NCBI GenBank assembly: GCA_029565735.1
Contig: JAKQNO010000070.1
Coordinates: 22,542-86,541 of the forward strand
Direction: 5' to 3'
Source: a bacterium
Lineage (GTDB): Bacteria; Oederibacteriota; PGYV01
Length of the DNA stretch: 64,000 bases
Position numbers and translations under genes: made by a program. Shown piece after piece: positions 2,591 through 57,515 of the stretch (position 1 is the stretch's first letter; the number at the start of each line of letters is the position of its first letter). The notes under the pieces were generated by a model. That model searched no databases, was not told where the DNA came from, and saw only the letters and a program-made list of their open reading frames with translations.

Positions 2591-3855
2591 AAACCGTCAT
2601 CATAGGCGCGGGGTTTGCGGGGCTGTCGGCGGCCCATATTCTAAAAGATAATTTTATTATCCTTGAAGCCGGGGCAAGGCCCGGCGGCCTGTGCAGGACA
2701 GAAGTAAAAGGCGGGTTCACCTTTGATTACACCGGGCACCTGATGCACCTAAGGCACAAAGAAACCGAAAAATTCATCCTTAAACACACTCCCGTAAAAA
2801 TGAATAAAATAAAGCGCAAAGCCGTGATTTTCAGCAGCGGGGTATATACAAAATATCCGTATCAGGCAAACAACTACGGCCTTCCGCCGGAAACAGTGGA
2901 AGAAAATTTAACCGGGTTCATCAGGGCAAAACTTAATAATAAAGAGGATAAAAGCAGTTTTAAAAACTGGTGTTTGTCTGTGATGGGCGAAGGCATTTCA
3001 AAAAATTTCATGCTGCCGTACAACAGCAAACTGTTAAAACACCCCCTTGATAAGATAACGCTTTCGTGGCTGGGCAGGTTTGTGCCAAGGCCGGAAATTG
3101 AGGACATAATTAAGGGCATTGAAGAAAAAGGTAAAGAGGGCGCCGGATATAACGCAAGTTTTTATTATCCGGAACGCGGCGGAATTGAATCAGTTATACG
3201 CGGCATTTACGGGCCGGTTAAAGATAAAGTGATATTAAACACGGCAGTGAAAAAAGTTGACCTTAAAAACAGGATTGTTTATTTCTCTTCCGGCGAGATA
3301 AAGTACGACAGGTTAATTTCCACAATGCCGTTAAAAAAGTTCTTAATGCTGACCGGAAATTCCGGTTATATTAAGGCGGCAAAAGGTTTAAAGGCAAGGA
3401 CGGTGTATTCGTTAAACGTGGGTTATAAAACGGCGTCTCCCACGGATATAAACTGGGTATATGTTCCGGAACCTGAATATCCTTTTTACAGGATAGGTTT
3501 TCCGCATACTTTTTCCACGTACAACGCGCCTGCCGGTTTAAGTTCCGTGTTTGCGGAAGTATCCGTAAAAGGCGCGGTTCCAAAAAACATTGACAGCGAA
3601 ATAATAAAAGGCCTTATAAAGATGAAGGTGTTAAGAAATAAAAGCGATATAAAAACATCATTGCCTTTATTGCTGCCGGACGCGTATGTGATATTTGACA
3701 GTTACAGGGACTCAACAGTGCCGGAGATTGAAAAAAAATTAAACGCGCAGGGCGTAATAACCGCAGGGCGCTGGGGAAAGTGGGAATATTCTTCCATGGA
3801 AGACGCTGTTATGGAAGGTATGCAAGCCGCTAAAAAAGCGGCCGGAGGCGCATAA
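2587..3855 (+). CDS. FAD flavoenzyme, UDP-galactopyranose mutase-like (long, eukaryote-type architecture)
   Basis: N-terminal Rossmann motif IIGAGFAGLSAA...EAGARPGG. Segments GFTFDYTGHLMH, YPYQANNYGLP, MLPYNSKL, FYYPERGGIES, PFYRIGF and AGRWGKWEYSSMEDA match recalled motifs of long-form UGMs. Confidence 0.6.
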   Translation: MKTVIIGAGFAGLSAAHILKDNFIILEAGARPGGLCRTEVKGGFTFDYTGHLMHLRHKETEKFILKHTPVKMNKIKRKAVIFSSGVYTKYPYQANNYGLPPETVEENLTGFIRAKLNNKEDKSSFKNWCLSVMGEGISKNFMLPYNSKLLKHPLDKITLSWLGRFVPRPEIEDIIKGIEEKGKEGAGYNASFYYPERGGIESVIRGIYGPVKDKVILNTAVKKVDLKNRIVYFSSGEIKYDRLISTMPLKKFLMLTGNSGYIKAAKGLKARTVYSLNVGYKTASPTDINWVYVPEPEYPFYRIGFPHTFSTYNAPAGLSSVFAEVSVKGAVPKNIDSEIIKGLIKMKVLRNKSDIKTSLPLLLPDAYVIFDSYRDSTVPEIEKKLNAQGVITAGRWGKWEYSSMEDAVMEGMQAAKKAAGGA

Positions 3856-4995
3856 ATGGCTGACAGAATTAACATTGCAATTGTAATAACCAGGCTGGAT
3901 CTGGGCGGGGCGCAGAAGGTGGCGCTTTACCTTGCGAAATATTTAGATAAAAAGAAATTTAACGTCCACCTTATTGCCGGCAGCGGCGGATATCTGGATA
4001 AAGAAGCAATAACTCAAAAAAACGGTGCCGTTTATCAGCTGTGGCCTGAAATAAAACATCCTATAAGCCCCATTAATGATTTTAAAGCCGTCTTAAAACT
4101 GAAGAAATATTTCGTTGAAAACAAAATAGATATTGTCCATACGCATTCTTCCAAGGCGGGAATAATAGGAAGGCTTGCCGCGCGTCTTGCAGGCGTAAAA
4201 AGGATAATTCACACAATACACGGGTTTTCATTCCACGAACATCAGAATCCCGTTGTGTTTTCGCTTTACAGGCTCCTTGAAATATTTTTTTCCGCGTTTA
4301 CGGATAATTTTATCGCTGTCGGCGGGGATATGGTTGATTACGGCGTGACAGAAGGCGTTGGATGGCGCGGCAAATATACCGTCATAAGGGCGGGAGTGGA
4401 ACTTAAAAAATTTAAAAAAGCGTCATCAGGATATAAAAAGGCAAGAAAAAAGTTTGGGGTAAAACCCGGGCAGTTTTTGGTGGGAATGATAGGCAATTTA
4501 AAAAAGCAAAAAAATCCTTTGGCTTTTGTTAAAATCGCAAAAATAGCCGCTGAAAAAAATCCTTCAATTGTGTTTAAATTCGCCGGTGACGGCGCTTTAA
4601 GAACAAAGACAGAAGCCATGATAACGCGCTATGGCCTGAATGATAAGGTTCAGCTTTTGGGGTGGATTGACAATCCGGAAGAATTCATGGCAGCGTGCGA
4701 TATGTTCCTGCTTACATCTTTATGGGAAGGGCTTCCGTGCACCCTTGCGCAGGCAGCGGCCGCAGGAAAGGTGTGCGCGGCTTCGGATATTTATGGGAAC
4801 AGGGAAATGATAAAAGGCCTTGGCGCGGGGTATCTTTTTAAACCGGAAGACTTTAAAGCCGCGGCGTCTTATATATATGAAGAGTCAAAAAGTGGCAAAA
4901 AGCCGGTTTACGGCAGTCAGGCGGCAAAATACCTTTCGCAGTTTGACGCGGATATTATGGTAAAGCAGCATGAAAAACTGTACCTTATACGGTAA
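3856..4995 (+). CDS. Glycosyltransferase family 4 (GT-B fold)
   Basis: Start directly follows the previous stop (TAA ATG). N-terminal 'LGGAQKV' and C-terminal EX7E-type motif 'EGLPCTLAQAAAAGKVCAASDIYGNREMI'. Confidence 0.8.
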   Translation: MADRINIAIVITRLDLGGAQKVALYLAKYLDKKKFNVHLIAGSGGYLDKEAITQKNGAVYQLWPEIKHPISPINDFKAVLKLKKYFVENKIDIVHTHSSKAGIIGRLAARLAGVKRIIHTIHGFSFHEHQNPVVFSLYRLLEIFFSAFTDNFIAVGGDMVDYGVTEGVGWRGKYTVIRAGVELKKFKKASSGYKKARKKFGVKPGQFLVGMIGNLKKQKNPLAFVKIAKIAAEKNPSIVFKFAGDGALRTKTEAMITRYGLNDKVQLLGWIDNPEEFMAACDMFLLTSLWEGLPCTLAQAAAAGKVCAASDIYGNREMIKGLGAGYLFKPEDFKAAASYIYEESKSGKKPVYGSQAAKYLSQFDADIMVKQHEKLYLIR

Positions 4996-5742: not shown

Positions 5743-6345
5743 ATGAAGAAATTGGCAATGGTTTTAGCTGTGCTTGTAATCGCCATGGTTGCGGTTTCAT
5801 GCGCGGGGACAACAGTAAAAAGGGTTGAAACCGACACTGTTATGGACCTGTCCGGAAGATGGAACGATACGGACGCCCAACTTGTGGCGGAACAGATGGT
5901 AAAGGAAATGCTTGAAAGGCCGTGGTTAAGAAGGTTCCTTAAGGAAACAGGAAAAGAACCGCGCGTAATTGTGGGCGATATCAGGAACAAAACAGAGGAA
6001 CATATTGAAGTTGAAACATTCAGGAAAGATATTGAAAAAGAGCTTACCAATTCAGGCGACGTGCGTTTTGTGGCAAGCGCGGCTGAAAGGGAAGAGATAA
6101 GAAAAGAACGCGAAGATATGCAGGAATACTCTTCGGAATCAACAATGAAACAGTTTAAGAAAGAAACAGCGGCTGACTATATGTTAAAAGGCGTCATCAC
6201 TTCAATTTCTGACGCGGCTGCCGGCAAAAAGGTAATTTACTACCAGATAGACCTGGAGCTTTTTGACACTGAATCAAACGAAAAAGCATGGGTCGGACAG
6301 AAGAAGATAAAGAAAATAATAGACAAACCGGGAATAGGTTTCTAA
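5743..6345 (+). CDS. Lipoprotein, LpoB-like (COG3417-type) domain
   Basis: Lipobox AVSC|AG. Segment 'GRWNDTDAQLVAEQMVKEML...PRVIVGDIRNKTEEHI...DYMLKGVITSI' fits the LpoB/Lpp20-like fold family. RBS AAGGAGGAAGG. Confidence 0.6.
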   Translation: MKKLAMVLAVLVIAMVAVSCAGTTVKRVETDTVMDLSGRWNDTDAQLVAEQMVKEMLERPWLRRFLKETGKEPRVIVGDIRNKTEEHIEVETFRKDIEKELTNSGDVRFVASAAEREEIRKEREDMQEYSSESTMKQFKKETAADYMLKGVITSISDAAAGKKVIYYQIDLELFDTESNEKAWVGQKKIKKIIDKPGIGF

Positions 6346-13323: not shown

Positions 13324-14250
13324 ATGGAAGAAAGGCTTAAACAGACAAAAAGAGGCATAAATTCCATAAGGGCGCTGTTGTCCCTTGTAATTTTGCTTTT
13401 GGGAATTTACAACGCGGGCGCCATAATTGAATCCGCGGGGTTTATTTTTTTCTATATTGCAATTGTAATAATATCCAATGTATTTTTTATAATGCTGCCG
13501 GAAAAAATGTACGAAGGCATGAAATTGCATTACATTATTTTCATACTTGATATAATACTTGTATGTTTCGGCGCGTACTGGCTGGGCGGCGTTTCTTTTA
13601 AGATGCTTATGGTAATATTTCTTGCGGTTTTTATGGCTGCCTTAAGCCAGTCCGTCGGGATGAGCCTGGTAATTGCGGCTGTTACAACGGCTGTTTATGT
13701 GATAATAAGTTCAACGGGCAGGGAAACCGGTTTTGCCGGACTGTTTCAGGAAAAAGAGATTCTTAATATCCCGTTTATTTTTGTGGTGTCGCTTCACGCA
13801 AGTTTTATTGCGGAGAAAGCAAATCAGGAGCTGGAAGAAAAGAAAAAGGTCAGGCAGGCTTACGGCGAGCTTGCGGAACAGTTTGAAGGTTTCCGCGGCG
13901 ACATTCACACCTTAAATGAATTTCATTCAAGGGTGTATGATTCTTTAAAACAGGCCGTCATAGTCACGGATGCCTCCGGCGCTGTAAAGGTTTTTAATTC
14001 GCGGGCTGAAGAGATTTTCGGCATAAGAAGGGGCAAGGCGGTTAATTTAAACGTTAACCATCAGGAAGGATTAAGCGGGCCCGCAAAACTTTTAAATGAA
14101 CTGATGCTTAAAAAACAGCCTTCTGATAATAAGGAAATATCGGTTATTGAATCCGGAACCGTTAAAAAATTGCGCGCGAATACAGGAAAAGTAAAAGACA
14201 GGGACGGAAATATTATTGGATACATATTTTCCGCAGAACAGTTTTTTTAA
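13324..14250 (+). CDS. Polytopic membrane protein with a C-terminal PAS-like domain and no output domain
   Basis: About 5 N-terminal TM helices, a coiled linker, then a PAS-like 'LKQAVIVTDASGAVKVFNSRAEEIFG...DRDGNIIGYIF'. Confidence 0.5.
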   Translation: MEERLKQTKRGINSIRALLSLVILLLGIYNAGAIIESAGFIFFYIAIVIISNVFFIMLPEKMYEGMKLHYIIFILDIILVCFGAYWLGGVSFKMLMVIFLAVFMAALSQSVGMSLVIAAVTTAVYVIISSTGRETGFAGLFQEKEILNIPFIFVVSLHASFIAEKANQELEEKKKVRQAYGELAEQFEGFRGDIHTLNEFHSRVYDSLKQAVIVTDASGAVKVFNSRAEEIFGIRRGKAVNLNVNHQEGLSGPAKLLNELMLKKQPSDNKEISVIESGTVKKLRANTGKVKDRDGNIIGYIFSAEQFF

Positions 14251-24649: not shown

Positions 24650-25564
24650 CTACCCCTCGTACATCCTTACCTGGTTTCTGCCGTTTCTTTTTGCGGTATA
24701 CAGGGCCTCGTCAGCGAATTTTACAAGGTCTTTTTCCGACGCGATTGAAGAGTTCCAGACCGAAATGCCTATGCTTATAGTAATGTTAAAATCAGTGTTT
24801 TCGTGTGAAAAAACCTCTTTTTCCACGGCTGTGCGTATCCTTTCGCCAAGGTAAAGCGCGGATTTGTAGTCAGATATGGGGCCTATTATCATAAACTCCT
24901 CACCGCCGAACCTGCCCACCACGTTAATGGCGCGCGATTTATCCTTAAGTATATGCGCGATTCTTTTCAATACCTCGTCGCCGCGCTGGTGGCCGTAAGT
25001 GTCGTTGACCTTTTTAAAATGGTCAATGTCAAGGAACATGACAGCCATGGAATTTCGGGAGCGCCTGGCAAGTTCAAAATGATAGGTAAGCTGTTCTTCC
25101 ATATAACCCTTGTTAAAAAGGCCCGTCAAGGGGTCGTGGTTGGCTTTGTCTTCAAGTTTTTCTGTTTTCTGTTCAAGCATATAATAGTTTTTACGAAGCG
25201 CGTTAGTGATATCGCGGTAGGAAATTATGCCTGCAAGCCTGTCATTTACAGTTATAGGTATCCTTCTTATCATGTTTAAGGACATAAGCGTTGCCGCTGT
25301 TTCAATATCCTGGTCAGGTTCCAGCGTCAGCACGGGGGAGCTCATAATATCCTGCGCCTGTTTGTTCAGTGCCTGTTCTTTGTAAATTCCCAAAGAGCGT
25401 ATTATGTCCCTTTCGGAGACTATTCCGACAGGGTAACGGTTATTATCCACAATTACAATAGCGCCTATGCGGTGCGCCTGAAGCCGTTTGGACATATCAA
25501 GTATTGTGTCTGTTTTTGCCGCTGTCAGAACATCTGTCATCATAACATCACTGATCTTTACCAA
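24650..25564 (-). CDS. Diguanylate cyclase with tandem CBS domains (CBS-CBS-GGDEF)
   Basis: Two CBS repeats at the N-terminus. Active-site GGEEF in 'RFGGEEFMII'. The I-site position reads RAIN rather than RxxD. Confidence 0.88.
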   Translation of the reverse strand: MVKISDVMMTDVLTAAKTDTILDMSKRLQAHRIGAIVIVDNNRYPVGIVSERDIIRSLGIYKEQALNKQAQDIMSSPVLTLEPDQDIETAATLMSLNMIRRIPITVNDRLAGIISYRDITNALRKNYYMLEQKTEKLEDKANHDPLTGLFNKGYMEEQLTYHFELARRSRNSMAVMFLDIDHFKKVNDTYGHQRGDEVLKRIAHILKDKSRAINVVGRFGGEEFMIIGPISDYKSALYLGERIRTAVEKEVFSHENTDFNITISIGISVWNSSIASEKDLVKFADEALYTAKRNGRNQVRMYEG

Positions 25565-52763: not shown

Positions 52764-52792
52764 TTGACCTTACCCTTCTTCAGGGCTATAAT
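52764..52792 (+). promoter_or_regulatory. Sigma70-type promoter
   Basis: TTGACC (52764-52769), a 17-nt spacer, then TATAAT (52787-52792). Confidence 0.5.
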
Positions 52793-52833
52793 TGTAATAG
52801 GAAGGCAGGGAAGTATTAAAGTAAAAGGCGGTG

Positions 52834-53007
52834 ATGGATATGTCCGCTTTCAATAGCAGAAGGTCAGGCAAGGAACGCAGGGAGGAAGAAAGGCGCCTGA
52901 AAGGAAGCAATATGGGTAAAACTTTGGAAACCGCGCGCCAGTCCGACCGCAGAATAAGAGAAAACCGCCGTGATAAAAATAATCCTATAAGCCGTATAGA
53001 ATTCTAA
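52834..53007 (+). CDS. Candidate 57-aa highly basic small protein
   Basis: Below the ORF-track cut-off. RBS AAGGCGG precedes the ATG. MDMSAFNSRRSGKERREEERRLKGSNMGKTLETARQSDRRIRENRRDKNNPISRIEF. Has its own promoter about 45 nt upstream. Confidence 0.3.
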   Translation: MDMSAFNSRRSGKERREEERRLKGSNMGKTLETARQSDRRIRENRRDKNNPISRIEF

Positions 53008-53235: not shown

Positions 53236-53263
53236 TTGACAAAACATGGCTTTGGGGTATAAT
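53236..53263 (+). promoter_or_regulatory. dcw (Pmra-like) promoter
   Basis: TTGACA (53236-53241), a 16-nt spacer, then TATAAT (53258-53263). Preceded by a ~190-bp extremely AT-rich tract. Confidence 0.55.
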
Positions 53264-53289
53264 TATGGCAAATAGTGGGAAAAAGTGGG
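53254..53289 (+). promoter_or_regulatory. Candidate MraZ operator (direct TGGG-type repeats at 10-11 bp phasing)
   Basis: TGGGG (53253-53257), TATGG (53264-53268), GTGGG (53275-53279) and GTGGG (53285-53289) lie between the -10 and the mraZ RBS. Confidence 0.45.
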
Positions 53290-53315: not shown

Positions 53316-53738
53316 GTGATAAAAACAGGTTTTATAGGACAGCATGAGCACAGCCTGGATGAAAAGGGCCGCGTAAGCATTCCGTCCAGATATAAAAAAT
53401 ACATTGAAGAGATAACCGTTGATCCTGATAAACGGAACGCTGTTGTGCTCTCTAAAAGCAAGGACAAGTGCATAGAAGTGTTTGCGCCGGAAAAATGGGA
53501 ACAGATGATGGGCAAATACGAGCAGAATACATCCCTTGAAGAGGAAAACCGCGATTTAAAATACATGAGGTCCAAACTTTCCAACACGGACTACGCCAAT
53601 GTTGATAAAAGCGGAAGGATAATAATACCGCAGTTTTTAAAGGATTACGCGGGCATAAGCAAAAATGTCGTATTTGCGGGCATTGGGGACAGGTTTGAAA
53701 TCTGGGATAAAAAAACTTTTGACGACAACAACAAATAG
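53316..53738 (+). CDS. mraZ: Transcriptional regulator MraZ
   Basis: GTG start after AAGGAG. Duplicated DxxxR motifs 'DEKGRVSIP' and 'DKSGRIIIP'. Confidence 0.92.
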   Translation: MIKTGFIGQHEHSLDEKGRVSIPSRYKKYIEEITVDPDKRNAVVLSKSKDKCIEVFAPEKWEQMMGKYEQNTSLEEENRDLKYMRSKLSNTDYANVDKSGRIIIPQFLKDYAGISKNVVFAGIGDRFEIWDKKTFDDNNK

Positions 53739-53749
53739 GGAGGCTGTAA

Positions 53750-54091
53750 ATGAGCGTTCAGACAACATCCAAAAAGTTCGTGATGCTTATTATGAAAGGC
53801 GAAATTGCGCTGGAAGACATAATCGCGTTAAAGGAAATAATAAACAGTTTCATAGAAATGGAGCAGTTTTTATTTGTCATTGATTTTTCCGAAGTGGCGC
53901 ACATTAACGTAAGCGGGATAGAGTATTTAAACGAGAGAAAGGAAAGGGTCCGCAGCCTTGGCGGCGACATAAAGATAATAGGCGCCAATGACTACGTCCG
54001 CAACCTTTTTGTGTACGCGGGATACTGGGGCGAATTTGATTTTTTCGCGAACGAAGAAGAAGCGGTAAGGGCCTTTAACAGCCTGATATGA
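53750..54091 (+). CDS. STAS-domain protein (anti-sigma-factor-antagonist-like)
   Basis: RBS GGGAGG. 'VIDFSEVAHINVSGIEYL...LGGDIKIIGANDYVRNLFVYAGYWGEFDFFANEEEA' fits the SpoIIAA/RsbV fold. Stop overlaps the rsmH start (ATGA). Confidence 0.75.
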   Translation: MSVQTTSKKFVMLIMKGEIALEDIIALKEIINSFIEMEQFLFVIDFSEVAHINVSGIEYLNERKERVRSLGGDIKIIGANDYVRNLFVYAGYWGEFDFFANEEEAVRAFNSLI

Positions 54092-54999
54092 CATTTTCCC
54101 ACAAAACAGTCCTTCTTGATGAAACCGCGGAACTGCTGCGGATTTCCGGGAAAAAAGGGCTGTGGGTGGACGCAACGCTGGGCTTCGGAGGACATAGTGA
54201 AAGGATTCTTAAGGATATGTCACCTGAAGCCCTTTTAATAGGTATTGATCAGGACGACAAAGCTCTTTCATACGCTTCAGAGAGGCTTAAAGCACACGCG
54301 AACTTTAAGGCCGTAAAGGGAAATTTTAAGAATCTTGACGGCATAGTGAAGGCGCAGGGCGCGGATTCCATAAGCGGAATAGTGTATGACCTTGGAGTTT
54401 CCAGCATGCAGCTTGATGACGGCGCGCGCGGGTTTTCTTTCATGAAAGACGCGCCGCTGGATATGAGGATGGATGAAACCGCGGAACTTTCCGCGTATGA
54501 CGTGGTTAACGGCTATAACAGGGCGGACCTGGAACGCGTGATAAAAGAGTACGGCGAGGAAGGTTATTACGCCAAGATAGCGGATCACATAATGAAAAGC
54601 AGGCCTGTGAAAAGCACGCTTGAACTGGCTGAAATAATAAAAAAGGCGAAATTCGGAAAAGAAAAGATACATCCGGCCACGAAAGTGTTTCAGGCGATAA
54701 GGATAGAAGTAAACGATGAACTTGGCGCTCTGGAAAAAAGCCTTAACAGCGCTTGCGGGCTTTTAGTGCCGGGCGGAAGGATGTGCGTCATATCCTTCCA
54801 TTCGCTTGAAGACAGGATAGTAAAGAATTTTATAAGGGAAAAATCGCACGGCTGCGACTGCGGTTACAGGCCGTGTATATGCAATAAGGTAAAGGAACTT
54901 GAAACGGTTACAAAGAAGCCGGCTACGGCTTCTTTCGCGGAGACAAAGGAAAACCCGCGGGCAAGAAGCGCGAAATTAAGGTGCGCGGAAAAGATTTAA
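54088..54999 (+). CDS. rsmH: 16S rRNA (cytosine1402-N4)-methyltransferase
   Basis: 'HKTVLLDE', 'VDATLGFGGHS', 'YDLGVSSMQLD', 'ISFHSLEDRIVK'. Confidence 0.95.
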   Translation: MTFSHKTVLLDETAELLRISGKKGLWVDATLGFGGHSERILKDMSPEALLIGIDQDDKALSYASERLKAHANFKAVKGNFKNLDGIVKAQGADSISGIVYDLGVSSMQLDDGARGFSFMKDAPLDMRMDETAELSAYDVVNGYNRADLERVIKEYGEEGYYAKIADHIMKSRPVKSTLELAEIIKKAKFGKEKIHPATKVFQAIRIEVNDELGALEKSLNSACGLLVPGGRMCVISFHSLEDRIVKNFIREKSHGCDCGYRPCICNKVKELETVTKKPATASFAETKENPRARSAKLRCAEKI

Positions 55000-55016
55000 A
55001 AATAAAGGAGAAGTCT

Positions 55017-55367
55017 GTGGCGGAATTTTCAAACAGGTTTTTAAGGGGCTTAAACGCGGGAAGCGTAAGGCCGGCAAGGGGCGGCGCCAATAAAGCCGTG
55101 GGGCTGATTCTGCTTTTATCCCTTCCGTTTCTGCTTGTGGTCTGGTTTTACACGCAGAGCGCGAAATTAAGCTACGATATAACCGAACTTACAAGAGAAC
55201 GCGACTCCTTAAAGTCGCAGAACAAAATGCTGGAAATGAAGGTGCAGGTTGCAATGTCCGGCAGCGGTATTGAACACATTGCAAGGGAACGCTACGGTTT
55301 CAGGCCGGCAAAACCCGGCGATGTGCAGGTCATAAAAAAAGAATACGGCGCGCTTGGTTTATTTTAA
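55017..55367 (+). CDS. ftsL: Cell-division protein FtsL/DivIC-like
   Basis: GTG lies 7 nt after AAGGAG. Single TM helix, coiled coil, 'IEHIARERYGFRPAKPGD'. Sits at the canonical position between rsmH and ftsI. Confidence 0.6.
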   Translation: MAEFSNRFLRGLNAGSVRPARGGANKAVGLILLLSLPFLLVVWFYTQSAKLSYDITELTRERDSLKSQNKMLEMKVQVAMSGSGIEHIARERYGFRPAKPGDVQVIKKEYGALGLF

Positions 55368-55388: not shown

Positions 55389-57515
55389 TTGAAGCAGGAA
55401 AGTTTTTCGGCAGAAAAGAGAATAGAGCTTGTATTGACTGTTTTTGTCTTTATTCTCGGCGTGCTTTTTATCCGTTTGCTTTTTCTGCAGGTTGTTATGC
55501 ATTCATCCCTGAAAAACCGCGCTGAAAAAGGGCAGATGTCCACGGTTAAAAAACAGATAGGCAGGGGCGCCATATATGACCGTTCGGGGCGCCAGCTTGC
55601 CATGAGTATAAAAACAGAGACCATCTGCGTCACTCCGCGCAACGTAAAGAATAAAGACCAGGCCGCGGATTTTTTAAGCAAAAAACTCGGGTTAAGCAGG
55701 CAGTATGTTTTGTCAAAGTTAAAAAGCCGCAGCGGGTTTGAATACATAAAAAGAAAAGTCCCGGCCGTCATCGCGGATGAGATTCTTGATAAAAAAATTC
55801 CAGGCGTCTTTTCACAGTCGGAAGAGAAAAGATATTATCCTTACGGCGAGATTACGGCTCACATAACCGGTTTTGCGGGCACGGACAACAAAGGCCTTGA
55901 AGGCATTGAGATGGCTTATGAAAAATACATGAGGGGAAAGCTTGGCAGGGAAGAGATACGCGTTGACGCTAAAAGAAGGCCTATTTTAATCGGTTCCAGG
56001 AAGATTAAAAAGGGCGAGCGCGGAGCGGACGTAACAACCACAATTGACGGCAATATACAGTACGCGGCATACCGCGAACTTGAAGCGACGGTAAAAAAAT
56101 CGCGCGCCAAATCCGGCAGCGTAATTGTAATGAACCCGGAAACAGGCGCGATATACGCGGCCGTAAATTATCCGTCTTATGACCCCAACACGCCTTCAAC
56201 GGCAAGCGCGGACAAAAAGAGAAACAGAATCATTACCGATATGTATGAGCCGGGTTCCACTTTCAAGATATTCACGATGTCGGCGTACCTTAAAAAGTTT
56301 CCAAATTCTGACGATGAAATAACATACTGCGGAATGGGTAAGGAAGTGTTTCAGATAGGCAAGTATCAAAGAACCGTGCATGACCACGAAAAACACGGCA
56401 ACCTGACGCACAACGAAATTATCAAAGTGTCTTCAAATATCGGAACCGTAAAACTTGCCATGAAATTAAAACCCGAAGACCTTTATAAGGAGTACCTGGC
56501 GTACGGTTTTAATTCAAAGACCGGAATTGATATGCCCGGCGAAGTGCCGGGCCTTATACGCGATTTAAGCAAATGGGACAAAGTGTCAATGACATCCGTT
56601 CCTTACGGGCAGGAAGTGGCGGTGTCTTCGCTTCAGCTTGCGCGCGCGTATGCCGCCATAGCAAACGGCGGAAAACTTGTAACGCCTTATCTTATTGAAA
56701 AAATAGTAAAAAACGGCCGCACTGTATACAGGCATAAAGTGAAAAAGCAGGACGGGCCTGCCACGGGAAAAAGAAGGGAAAAACTTGTGGCAATGCTTGA
56801 AGCTGTTATGGAAAAAGACGGGTCAGGAAAAAAAGCCGCTGTCGCGGGCTACAGGGTTGCCGGCAAGACCGGAACGGCGCAGAAACACCGCACTGACGGG
56901 AAAGGCTACGCGGCAAACAAGTATGTGGCTTCATTTATCGGATTCATGCCGGCTGACAAGCCGGAAACAGTGACCCTTGTGACAATTGACGAGCCGGAAG
57001 GTTATGTGTATTTTGGCGGCGACCTTGCGGGACCGATTTTCAGGAATTTAAACACAATGATGGCTTCGTACTTTAAGGTGCTTCCTTCGGAAACATTTAC
57101 CGCTGATGCGGAAGGCGGGGACGCGGCCCGTGAAACGGCGAAAATGCCGTCCATAAAGAAAAAGACGTTCGCGGAGGCGAAAAACCTGCTGTCCGCGGAA
57201 AAGATAAAATATCAGAGCCATGGTTTCGGCAAAATGGTTATAGCGCAGGAACCTGCCCCCGGAGAAACGCTTGGTTTTGGAAAATACGCCCAGGTTTTTC
57301 TTGGCGATGAAGCTCAGGCGGACAATGAAAAAACATATATGCCCAACGTGAAAGGCATGACGGTAAGGCGGGCTATGGAAGTGCTTCGGTTATACGGATT
57401 AAAAGCAAAATGCACAGGCAGCGGTTTTGCGGTCAGCCAGGAACCGCGCCCGGGCGTCGCGCTTAAAAAGGGCGCAATATGCACCGTGAATTTTATGATG
57501 AAGGACGGCGTATGA
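55389..57515 (+). CDS. ftsI: Class B penicillin-binding protein (FtsI/PBP3-type) with two C-terminal PASTA domains
   Basis: TTG start. Motifs STFK (EPGSTFKIF), SSN (KVSSNIG) and KTGTA. PASTA-like repeats at 57144-57503. Confidence 0.9.
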   Translation: MKQESFSAEKRIELVLTVFVFILGVLFIRLLFLQVVMHSSLKNRAEKGQMSTVKKQIGRGAIYDRSGRQLAMSIKTETICVTPRNVKNKDQAADFLSKKLGLSRQYVLSKLKSRSGFEYIKRKVPAVIADEILDKKIPGVFSQSEEKRYYPYGEITAHITGFAGTDNKGLEGIEMAYEKYMRGKLGREEIRVDAKRRPILIGSRKIKKGERGADVTTTIDGNIQYAAYRELEATVKKSRAKSGSVIVMNPETGAIYAAVNYPSYDPNTPSTASADKKRNRIITDMYEPGSTFKIFTMSAYLKKFPNSDDEITYCGMGKEVFQIGKYQRTVHDHEKHGNLTHNEIIKVSSNIGTVKLAMKLKPEDLYKEYLAYGFNSKTGIDMPGEVPGLIRDLSKWDKVSMTSVPYGQEVAVSSLQLARAYAAIANGGKLVTPYLIEKIVKNGRTVYRHKVKKQDGPATGKRREKLVAMLEAVMEKDGSGKKAAVAGYRVAGKTGTAQKHRTDGKGYAANKYVASFIGFMPADKPETVTLVTIDEPEGYVYFGGDLAGPIFRNLNTMMASYFKVLPSETFTADAEGGDAARETAKMPSIKKKTFAEAKNLLSAEKIKYQSHGFGKMVIAQEPAPGETLGFGKYAQVFLGDEAQADNEKTYMPNVKGMTVRRAMEVLRLYGLKAKCTGSGFAVSQEPRPGVALKKGAICTVNFMMKDGV

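Follow-up and report, generated by a model that had tools for sequence, protein, structure and literature searches.

The second gene of the cell-division (dcw) operon examined here encodes a small protein of predicted STAS fold that cannot be switched by the usual serine phosphorylation, and the same arrangement, with the STAS gene located between mraZ and rsmH, recurs in several other bacterial phyla, so that it looks like an undescribed regular member of the mraZ-rsmH module. The gene lies in a 64,000-nucleotide stretch of contig JAKQNO010000070.1 (assembly GCA_029565735.1), referred to below as the window, and comprises positions 53750 to 54091 on the forward strand. The open reading frame of 113 residues begins at the first start codon following a stop codon. 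Distant relatives of the protein (20-35% identity) share an invariant histidine at position 51 and have no serine at position 54, and they sit between mraZ and rsmH in every lineage whose gene context could be read. The elements of the locus are the following:

53236..53263 (+), sigma-70-type promoter of the dcw operon (TTGACA, 16 nt, TATAAT), matching the consensus at 12 of 12 positions
53265..53289 (+), MraZ-box-like direct repeats, ATGGC-N5-GTGGG-N5-GTGGG, directly after the -10 element
53316..53738 (+), mraZ (140 aa, GTG start; stop codon TAG at 53736-53738)
53739..53743 (+), GGAGG ribosome-binding site of the STAS gene, 6 nt before its ATG at 53750
53750..54091 (+), His-type single-domain STAS gene (113 aa, pI 4.7; stop codon TGA at 54089-54091)
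53882..53917 (+), codons for D45-F-S-E-V-A-H51-I-N53-V54-S55-G56, the degenerate phospho-loop
54088..54091 (+), ATGA overlap of the STAS stop and the rsmH start (ATG at 54088-54090)
54088..54999 (+), rsmH (303 aa)
54981..55367 (+), ftsL/divIC-like gene overlapping the end of rsmH
55389..57515 (+), ftsI (PBP3-type transpeptidase), followed by murE, murF, mraY, murD and ftsW

The initial annotation had described a STAS-domain gene embedded between mraZ and rsmH and had named the absence of a STAS profile hit as a result that would speak against it. The Pfam search returned PF01740 with an E value of 1.6e-10 (41.1 bits against a cut-off of 22.6), whereas PF13466, the second profile proposed for this purpose, remained below its cut-off. 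The flanking genes were identified as MraZ (PF02381, 2e-26, two repeats; hits to NF001476/TIGR00242 were below the equivalog cut-offs) and RsmH (PF01795, 1.6e-110; TIGR00006, 355.9 bits against a cut-off of 154). The gene downstream of rsmH gave only weak DivIC (1e-4) and FtsL (3.6e-3) hits below the cut-offs, but its position is conserved; the genes from ftsI onwards were assigned from precomputed Pfam hits on an identical locus. An AlphaFold2 model of the STAS protein built on 25 homologues was confident (pLDDT 86, pTM 0.77) and showed the order of strands and helices expected of a STAS domain. Its best structural matches in a Foldseek search were SpoIIAA in complex with SpoIIAB (1thn_B, TM 0.81), RsbS (6jhk, TM 0.82), RsbV, and SLC26 STAS domains, with TM values around 0.8. 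Thus, the observation made in the initial annotation was confirmed, with one correction: it is the start codon, not the ribosome-binding site, that lies 11 nt after the mraZ stop, the ribosome-binding site directly abutting the stop codon. The ATGA overlap with rsmH was as described. Scans of the window for Rfam families and tRNAs found nothing.

The local motif D45 to G56 also reads as previously annotated. Profile alignments to SpoIIAA and RsbV placed Asn53 on the conserved Asp (RsbV D55), Val54 on the phosphorylated serine (SpoIIAA S58, RsbV S56), Ser55/Gly56 on the S/T-G pair, and His51 on RsbV Y53. Residues H51, N53, and G56 are invariant in Goldbacteria. Ser55 was considered as an alternative phospho-acceptor but was rejected, as it is near-invariant only in Goldbacteria and variable (R/S/T/A/Q/L) across the wider family.

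With respect to the operon setting, the promoter assignment rests on a consensus match only, without transcription data. The motif GTGGG-N5-GTGGG occurs once in the 64 kb, at this site, with 0.10 occurrences expected by chance, and similar GTGG repeats with a 10-nt period lie upstream of mraZ in ten related loci (L006-L009, L011, L014, L021, L026, L030, and L034; L numbers denote the individual loci recovered in the homologue searches). Three repeated MraZ boxes at the promoter, overlapping the transcription start, are the described architecture (PMC12957436). No terminator-like site on the forward strand separates mraZ, the STAS gene, and rsmH. Co-transcription, as proposed in the initial annotation, is therefore well supported by anatomy but has not been measured. 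GGAGG-like sites at the same place before the STAS gene were found in L009, L010, L014, and L016-L021. The GC and GC3 contents of the STAS gene resemble those of the neighboring genes which, together with conservation of the arrangement across 18 species-level loci and other phyla, led us to reject a recent horizontal insertion.

Close homologues comprise 47 clusters (64-95% identity, nearly all exactly 113 aa) labelled Candidatus Goldbacteria/Goldiibacteriota, with a few MAG labels reading Firmicutes or Spirochaetia; FCPU426 and Goldbacteria are the same clade (PMC7031533). Together with conserved synteny, these homologues of fixed length exclude a chance open reading frame. A survey of what lies between mraZ and rsmH in other genomes had been suggested beforehand as a check. 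A scan of one genome per GTDB species, with the STAS gene itself as the query, recovered 18 Goldbacteria/FCPU426 loci, all of which have mraZ-STAS-rsmH on one strand; it shows that the gene is always at this position, not that every Goldbacteria genome has it. STAS is the best-conserved protein of the region at 65-74% identity, compared to 38-56% for MraZ, 48-61% for RsmH, 28-45% for FtsL, and 45-53% for FtsI. The 4-nt ATGA overlap with rsmH is kept in 17 of the 18 loci, whereas the spacer between mraZ and the STAS gene ranges from -4 to 213 nt.

The arrangement extends far beyond this phylum. A profile search of 1.84 billion cluster representatives found a single 50%-identity cluster for the Goldbacteria type, after which scores dropped sharply. 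Among the next hits, 47 single-domain proteins (about 19-34% identical by profile alignment) share V-x-H-x-[N/H/D]-[Y/L/F/V] in place of the canonical [Y/F]-x-[D/N]-S-[S/T]-G. Each of these "His-type" sub-families whose context could be read lies between mraZ and rsmH, i.e., P0053 in L025, P0197 in L026 (a Candidatus Omnitrophica assembly), P0248 in L029, P0226 in L030 (whose MraZ cluster carries an Omnitrophota name), P0118 in L031 and L032, and P0105 in L033 (P numbers denote the proteins), representing two Omnitrophota groups and four further groups. A metagenome scan was performed with the 119-residue Nitrospirota-labelled group only, as more diverse His-type alignments lacked a conserved stretch, and returned 80 loci. 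All 77 loci with room upstream have mraZ directly upstream, and 68 of the 70 with room on both sides have rsmH downstream; of the two exceptions, L059 has a frameshifted rsmH, bringing the count to 69 of 70, and L095 has convergent MlaD/ABC-ATPase-like genes instead. In locus L034 of this group, the mraZ stop and the STAS start are one base apart (TGA-N-ATG); across the group, the aligned mraZ end and the STAS start are separated by a median of 4 nt, and about 108 nt precede rsmH. The median identities were 85% for STAS, 84% for MraZ, and 74% for RsmH. His-type sequences whose gene context could not be read carried the labels Candidatus Acidoferrales (Acidobacteriota-type) and Deltaproteobacteria MAG. 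Two Ser-type STAS hits serving as controls are located elsewhere, one as SecDF-STAS-PurA in a Calditrichaeota contig (L027) and one as STAS-HATPase_c-SpoIIE in a Zixibacteria contig (L028). A single open reading frame combining MraZ and STAS (P0318) was not used as evidence for a fusion, since it is probably a frameshift: the linker reads like an out-of-frame read-through with the normal STAS start (MLQRN...) embedded in it, on a 1-kb contig, and it only shows adjacency.

To determine what distinguishes the family, 41 His-type clusters were compared with 45 Ser-type clusters, each set made non-redundant at 50% identity. Position 51 is His in the former and Tyr/Phe in the latter; note that His51 was our selection criterion for the wider family and its complete conservation there is partly circular, although it is independently invariant within Goldbacteria. 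Position 54 is Tyr/Leu/Phe/Val in the His-type clusters and Ser in 98% of the Ser-type clusters; positions 62 and 63 are Glu-Arg versus variable; position 82 is Tyr (76%) versus variable and often basic; and position 91 is Gly in 93% versus 38%. The window protein carries H51, V54, E62, R63, Y82, and G91 and is encoded between mraZ and rsmH on the same strand, and it therefore shows every feature by which we define the proposed dcw-linked family. In the RsbV-RsbW crystal structure, RsbV residues D23, Y53, S56, R84, R87, and I91 form hydrogen bonds with RsbW (PMC7340262). These positions map to A20, H51, V54, Y82, N85, and Y89 of the window protein. The signature residues His51 and Tyr82 are thus located on the canonical partner-binding face of STAS domains, with changed chemistry, which we read as the same binding face with a different specificity; this is an inference from alignment, as no complex was modelled. 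No NCBIfam model is dedicated to any of the nine sub-family members scanned.

Partner enzymes of the canonical phospho-switch had likewise been named as something to look for, and the initial annotation had seen none in the window. No HATPase_c (RsbW/SpoIIAB-type) or PP2C/SpoIIE protein was found among the window's genes annotated from precomputed Pfam hits on matching contigs or scanned here, nor in any of the dcw-linked contexts read, whereas the Ser-type control L028 had both enzymes adjacent. A canonical partner-switching module was therefore rejected as the local explanation. Whether cognate enzymes exist at all is left undecided by this result, since the rest of the genome was not searched. 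Literature searches combining STAS or anti-sigma factor antagonists with mraZ, mraW/rsmH, or the dcw cluster found no paper connecting them, in a corpus that excludes many subscription papers.

Taken together, the proposal of the initial annotation that a non-phosphorylatable STAS protein forms an undescribed regulatory input tied to the division operon, with MraZ, RsmH, or a divisome component as candidate partners, was supported and strengthened, with two amendments. The gene is not a lineage-specific insertion but one member of a multi-phylum family, and the tight coupling to rsmH is a Goldbacteria feature, the tight junction in the Nitrospirota-type group being with mraZ. What the analysis shows directly is the predicted fold, the loss of the phospho-site, the conserved position as second cistron of the dcw operon in several phyla, the operon-like junctions, strong purifying selection, and family-specific residues at contact positions; co-transcription, binding, the identity of the partner, and any regulatory effect are inferred, there being no binding, expression, or phenotype evidence. 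Our favored, still tentative explanation is that the gene encodes a member of an unnamed family of single-domain His-type STAS proteins that would be transcribed from the MraZ-box-bearing promoter together with mraZ and rsmH and, in this lineage, be translationally coupled to rsmH. Lacking the phosphorylatable serine and an accompanying kinase or phosphatase, the protein could not work as a SpoIIAA/RsbV-type phospho-switch and would instead act by direct, dose-dependent binding through the canonical STAS contact face, whose key positions have been re-specified (His51, Val/Tyr54, Tyr82). The partner is most likely encoded next door, and our preferred candidate is MraZ: the acidic STAS protein would bind the repressor and modulate its oligomer or operator binding, as anti-repressor or co-repressor, giving the autoregulated dcw promoter an extra input. 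Hints in this direction are that MraZ has no known signal input, that the STAS gene abuts mraZ in the largest group, that in L095 it stays with mraZ although rsmH is not adjacent (this is, however, a 2-kb metagenome contig that could be chimeric), and that the STAS protein is acidic while MraZ is basic. On the other hand, the conserved tight junction in Goldbacteria is with rsmH, and mirror-tree partial correlations were weak and pointed in opposite directions in the two lineages (0.16 with MraZ against 0.26 with RsmH in Goldbacteria, and 0.43 against 0.28 in the Nitrospirota-type group), so that they did not discriminate between the two neighbors.

The main rival, which we consider possible but less likely, is that the STAS protein is an accessory subunit of the 16S rRNA C1402 N4-methyltransferase RsmH, made in fixed ratio with it and modulating its activity, its docking on the 30S subunit, or its stability. 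This is favored by the ATGA overlap in Goldbacteria alongside the variable mraZ-STAS spacing, by the overlap with rsmH in L030 and the 7-nt gap in L026 of Omnitrophota, by the slightly higher partial correlation with RsmH in Goldbacteria, and by the pairing of an acidic STAS protein with a basic RsmH (pI 8.3). It is disfavored by the roughly 108-nt distance to rsmH in the Nitrospirota-type group, where STAS abuts mraZ, by a 105-nt gap in L029, and by L095; moreover, no methyltransferase is known to use a STAS partner. Unlikely, though not excluded with only 64 kb examined, is a constitutive antagonist that titrates an RsbW/SpoIIAB-type anti-sigma factor or another ATPase encoded elsewhere, in which case the transcription level of the dcw operon would set the activity of an alternative sigma factor. 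The closest folds and sequences are indeed SpoIIAA and RsbV, some relatives pass the TIGR00377 superfamily cut-off (P0197 at 66.5, P0316 at 60.1, and P0226 at 53.5 bits), and non-phosphorylatable SpoIIAA variants still bind SpoIIAB. However, apart from the lack of nearby HATPase_c or PP2C genes, exactly the RsbW-contacting positions are changed across the family (Y53 to H, S56 to Y/L/V, R84 to Y), and a remote partner does not explain a fixed position between mraZ and rsmH across phyla. More doubtful still is a regulator that binds a downstream dcw product (FtsL/FtsB, FtsI, FtsW, a Mur ligase, FtsA, or FtsZ) in the way MlaB binds the MlaF ATPase; the shared operon with ftsL, ftsI, murE, murF, mraY, murD, and ftsW, the usual binding of bacterial single-domain STAS proteins to ATPases or kinases, and a weak MlaB profile similarity speak for it, but the position is fixed between mraZ and rsmH rather than next to any divisome gene, and the MlaB score is far below its cut-off. 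A chance open reading frame or decaying passenger, for which nothing speaks beyond the lack of expression data, is effectively refuted by the profile match, the fixed length, the conserved ribosome-binding site and start codon, and a conservation exceeding that of its essential neighbors.

A further, unlikely reading is that the His-type STAS protein is an ancient third core component of the module acting as a sensor, in which the invariant His at the N-terminus of helix 2 replaces covalent serine phosphorylation with reversible binding of a phosphate-bearing ligand, such as a cell-wall precursor or an alarmone. The ligand state would decide whether the protein sequesters MraZ (or RsmH), coupling cell-envelope or growth status to transcription of the division operon, and this would supply the long-missing signal input for MraZ. 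The roles of MraZ and RsmH at the head of the dcw cluster, one of the most conserved gene clusters in bacteria, are still unclear, and no signal or partner controlling MraZ is known. A small protein-binding module fixed between the two genes in Goldbacteria, Omnitrophota, Nitrospirota-type, and other lineages, as conserved as MraZ itself or more so, is a concrete, testable candidate for that missing partner; it would surprise dcw specialists and gives a direct experimental handle on MraZ/RsmH function, although the function itself is still inference. The finding also shows that generic "anti-sigma factor antagonist" annotations hide a distinct subfamily that has lost the phospho-switch and re-specified the contact face.

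Among known systems, the protein is closest to the SpoIIAA/RsbV anti-sigma-factor antagonists, which it is taken to resemble in its way of working and from which it is taken to descend. It shares with them a single STAS domain of about 110 residues, the best sequence (1auz, E = 1.8e-7) and fold matches, the order of secondary structure elements, and a conserved surface on the face that contacts RsbW. It differs from them by Val54 in place of the phospho-Ser, Asn in place of the preceding Asp, His51 and Tyr82 in place of the Tyr and Arg contact residues, scores below the curated cut-offs (30.9 bits against 53.45 for TIGR00377 and 31.8 against 114.75 for TIGR02886), the absence of kinase/anti-sigma or PP2C genes nearby, and its location inside the dcw operon. 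MlaB, the STAS subunit of the MlaFEDB lipid transporter, is likewise a small, non-phosphorylated STAS protein working purely by binding a partner, but NF033618 scored 17.8 bits against a cut-off of 90, and no mlaFED genes are adjacent in the window. The stressosome proteins RsbS and RsbR share the STAS fold, but here no RsbT-type kinase or RsbX phosphatase is nearby, there is no conserved phospho-acceptor, and the genomic context is different. The protein is not a SulP/SLC26 transporter domain either, being a stand-alone 113-residue open reading frame with a TIGR00815 score of 11.7 bits against 380. Finally, the locus shares with the MraZ-RsmH module of E. coli, B. subtilis, and Mycoplasma a promoter with repeated GTGG boxes and mraZ as the first gene, with rsmH, ftsL, and ftsI following; in those organisms mraZ and rsmH are adjacent with nothing between them, whereas here, and in at least four other named lineages, a STAS gene is a fixed third member.

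The 770-nt gap between the SpoU-type methylase gene and mraZ holds a promoter-like site and a short ORF (together window 52764-53007), the latter called as a gene on the matching contigs L002 to L004 but without a Pfam hit. Three further window genes were noted: the CBS-GGDEF and PAS-domain genes listed below encode the only signaling proteins noticed among the window proteins scanned or annotated, and the LpoB-like gene has a PF13036 match at 1.3e-43.

52764-52792, promoter-like site (11 of 12)
52831-53007, 58-aa, highly charged ORF
24650-25564 (-), CBS-GGDEF diguanylate cyclase
13324-14250 (+), 308-aa PAS-domain protein
5743-6345 (+), LpoB-like lipoprotein gene

The LpoB-like gene, of a peptidoglycan-synthase activator family described mainly in enterobacteria, is present in this candidate-phylum genome.

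Two of the Goldbacteria loci, L005 (positions 3788-4000) and L010 (positions 3900-4000), have long mraZ-STAS spacers of 213 and 101 nt, respectively, which contain GC-rich inverted repeats; these could be inserted repeat elements or an internal attenuator. In the Goldbacteria genome with an 804-kb contig (L001:7657-9770 and L010:5693-7758), ftsI is split into two overlapping ORFs, representing either a frameshift or a real split of the PBP.

Some His-type STAS proteins (P0070, P0143, and P0091) carry Cys/His-rich N-terminal extensions (C..H..ECAHCRAENxGP; CPIC...HCPVH) that look like small zinc-binding motifs. In P0318, a protein of 263 aa from a JGI contig of 1085 bp, MraZ and STAS are read as one ORF. 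While a genuine fusion would be strong evidence for an MraZ-STAS interaction, the linker looks like an out-of-frame read-through with the usual STAS start embedded, so that an assembly frameshift is more likely than a true fusion. In the search of cluster representatives, large proteins of 700 to 1600 aa (P0049 to P0051, P0055, and P0057) scored just below the Goldbacteria cluster; they carry three tandem Ser-type STAS domains (Y-I-N-S-T-G) separated by Pro/Ser-rich linkers, and one of them is fused to a Ser/Thr kinase-like region and ankyrin repeats.

Among the Nitrospirota-type loci, L095 (positions 1-1959) is the only one in which rsmH does not follow the STAS gene. Convergent MlaD-like and ABC-ATPase (MlaF-like) ORFs lie downstream instead, which may be coincidence or the result of a chimeric contig; MlaB, the partner of MlaF, is itself a STAS protein. 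The Nitrospirota-type STAS proteins (L034 to L113; alignment A5) furthermore share a C-terminal tail, K-P-A-T-N-L-P-L-G-L, comprising the last 10 residues of the ORF (e.g., L034:3328-3357). This tail is almost invariant in the alignment, with L115, P116, L117, and G118 being invariant and K110, T113, and N114 present in at least 90% of the sequences. It is absent from the window protein, and other sub-families carry different conserved tails. The sequence of the tail resembles the beta-clamp-binding hexapeptide QLxLxL, exemplified by Pol IV of E. coli, which ends with QLVLGL.
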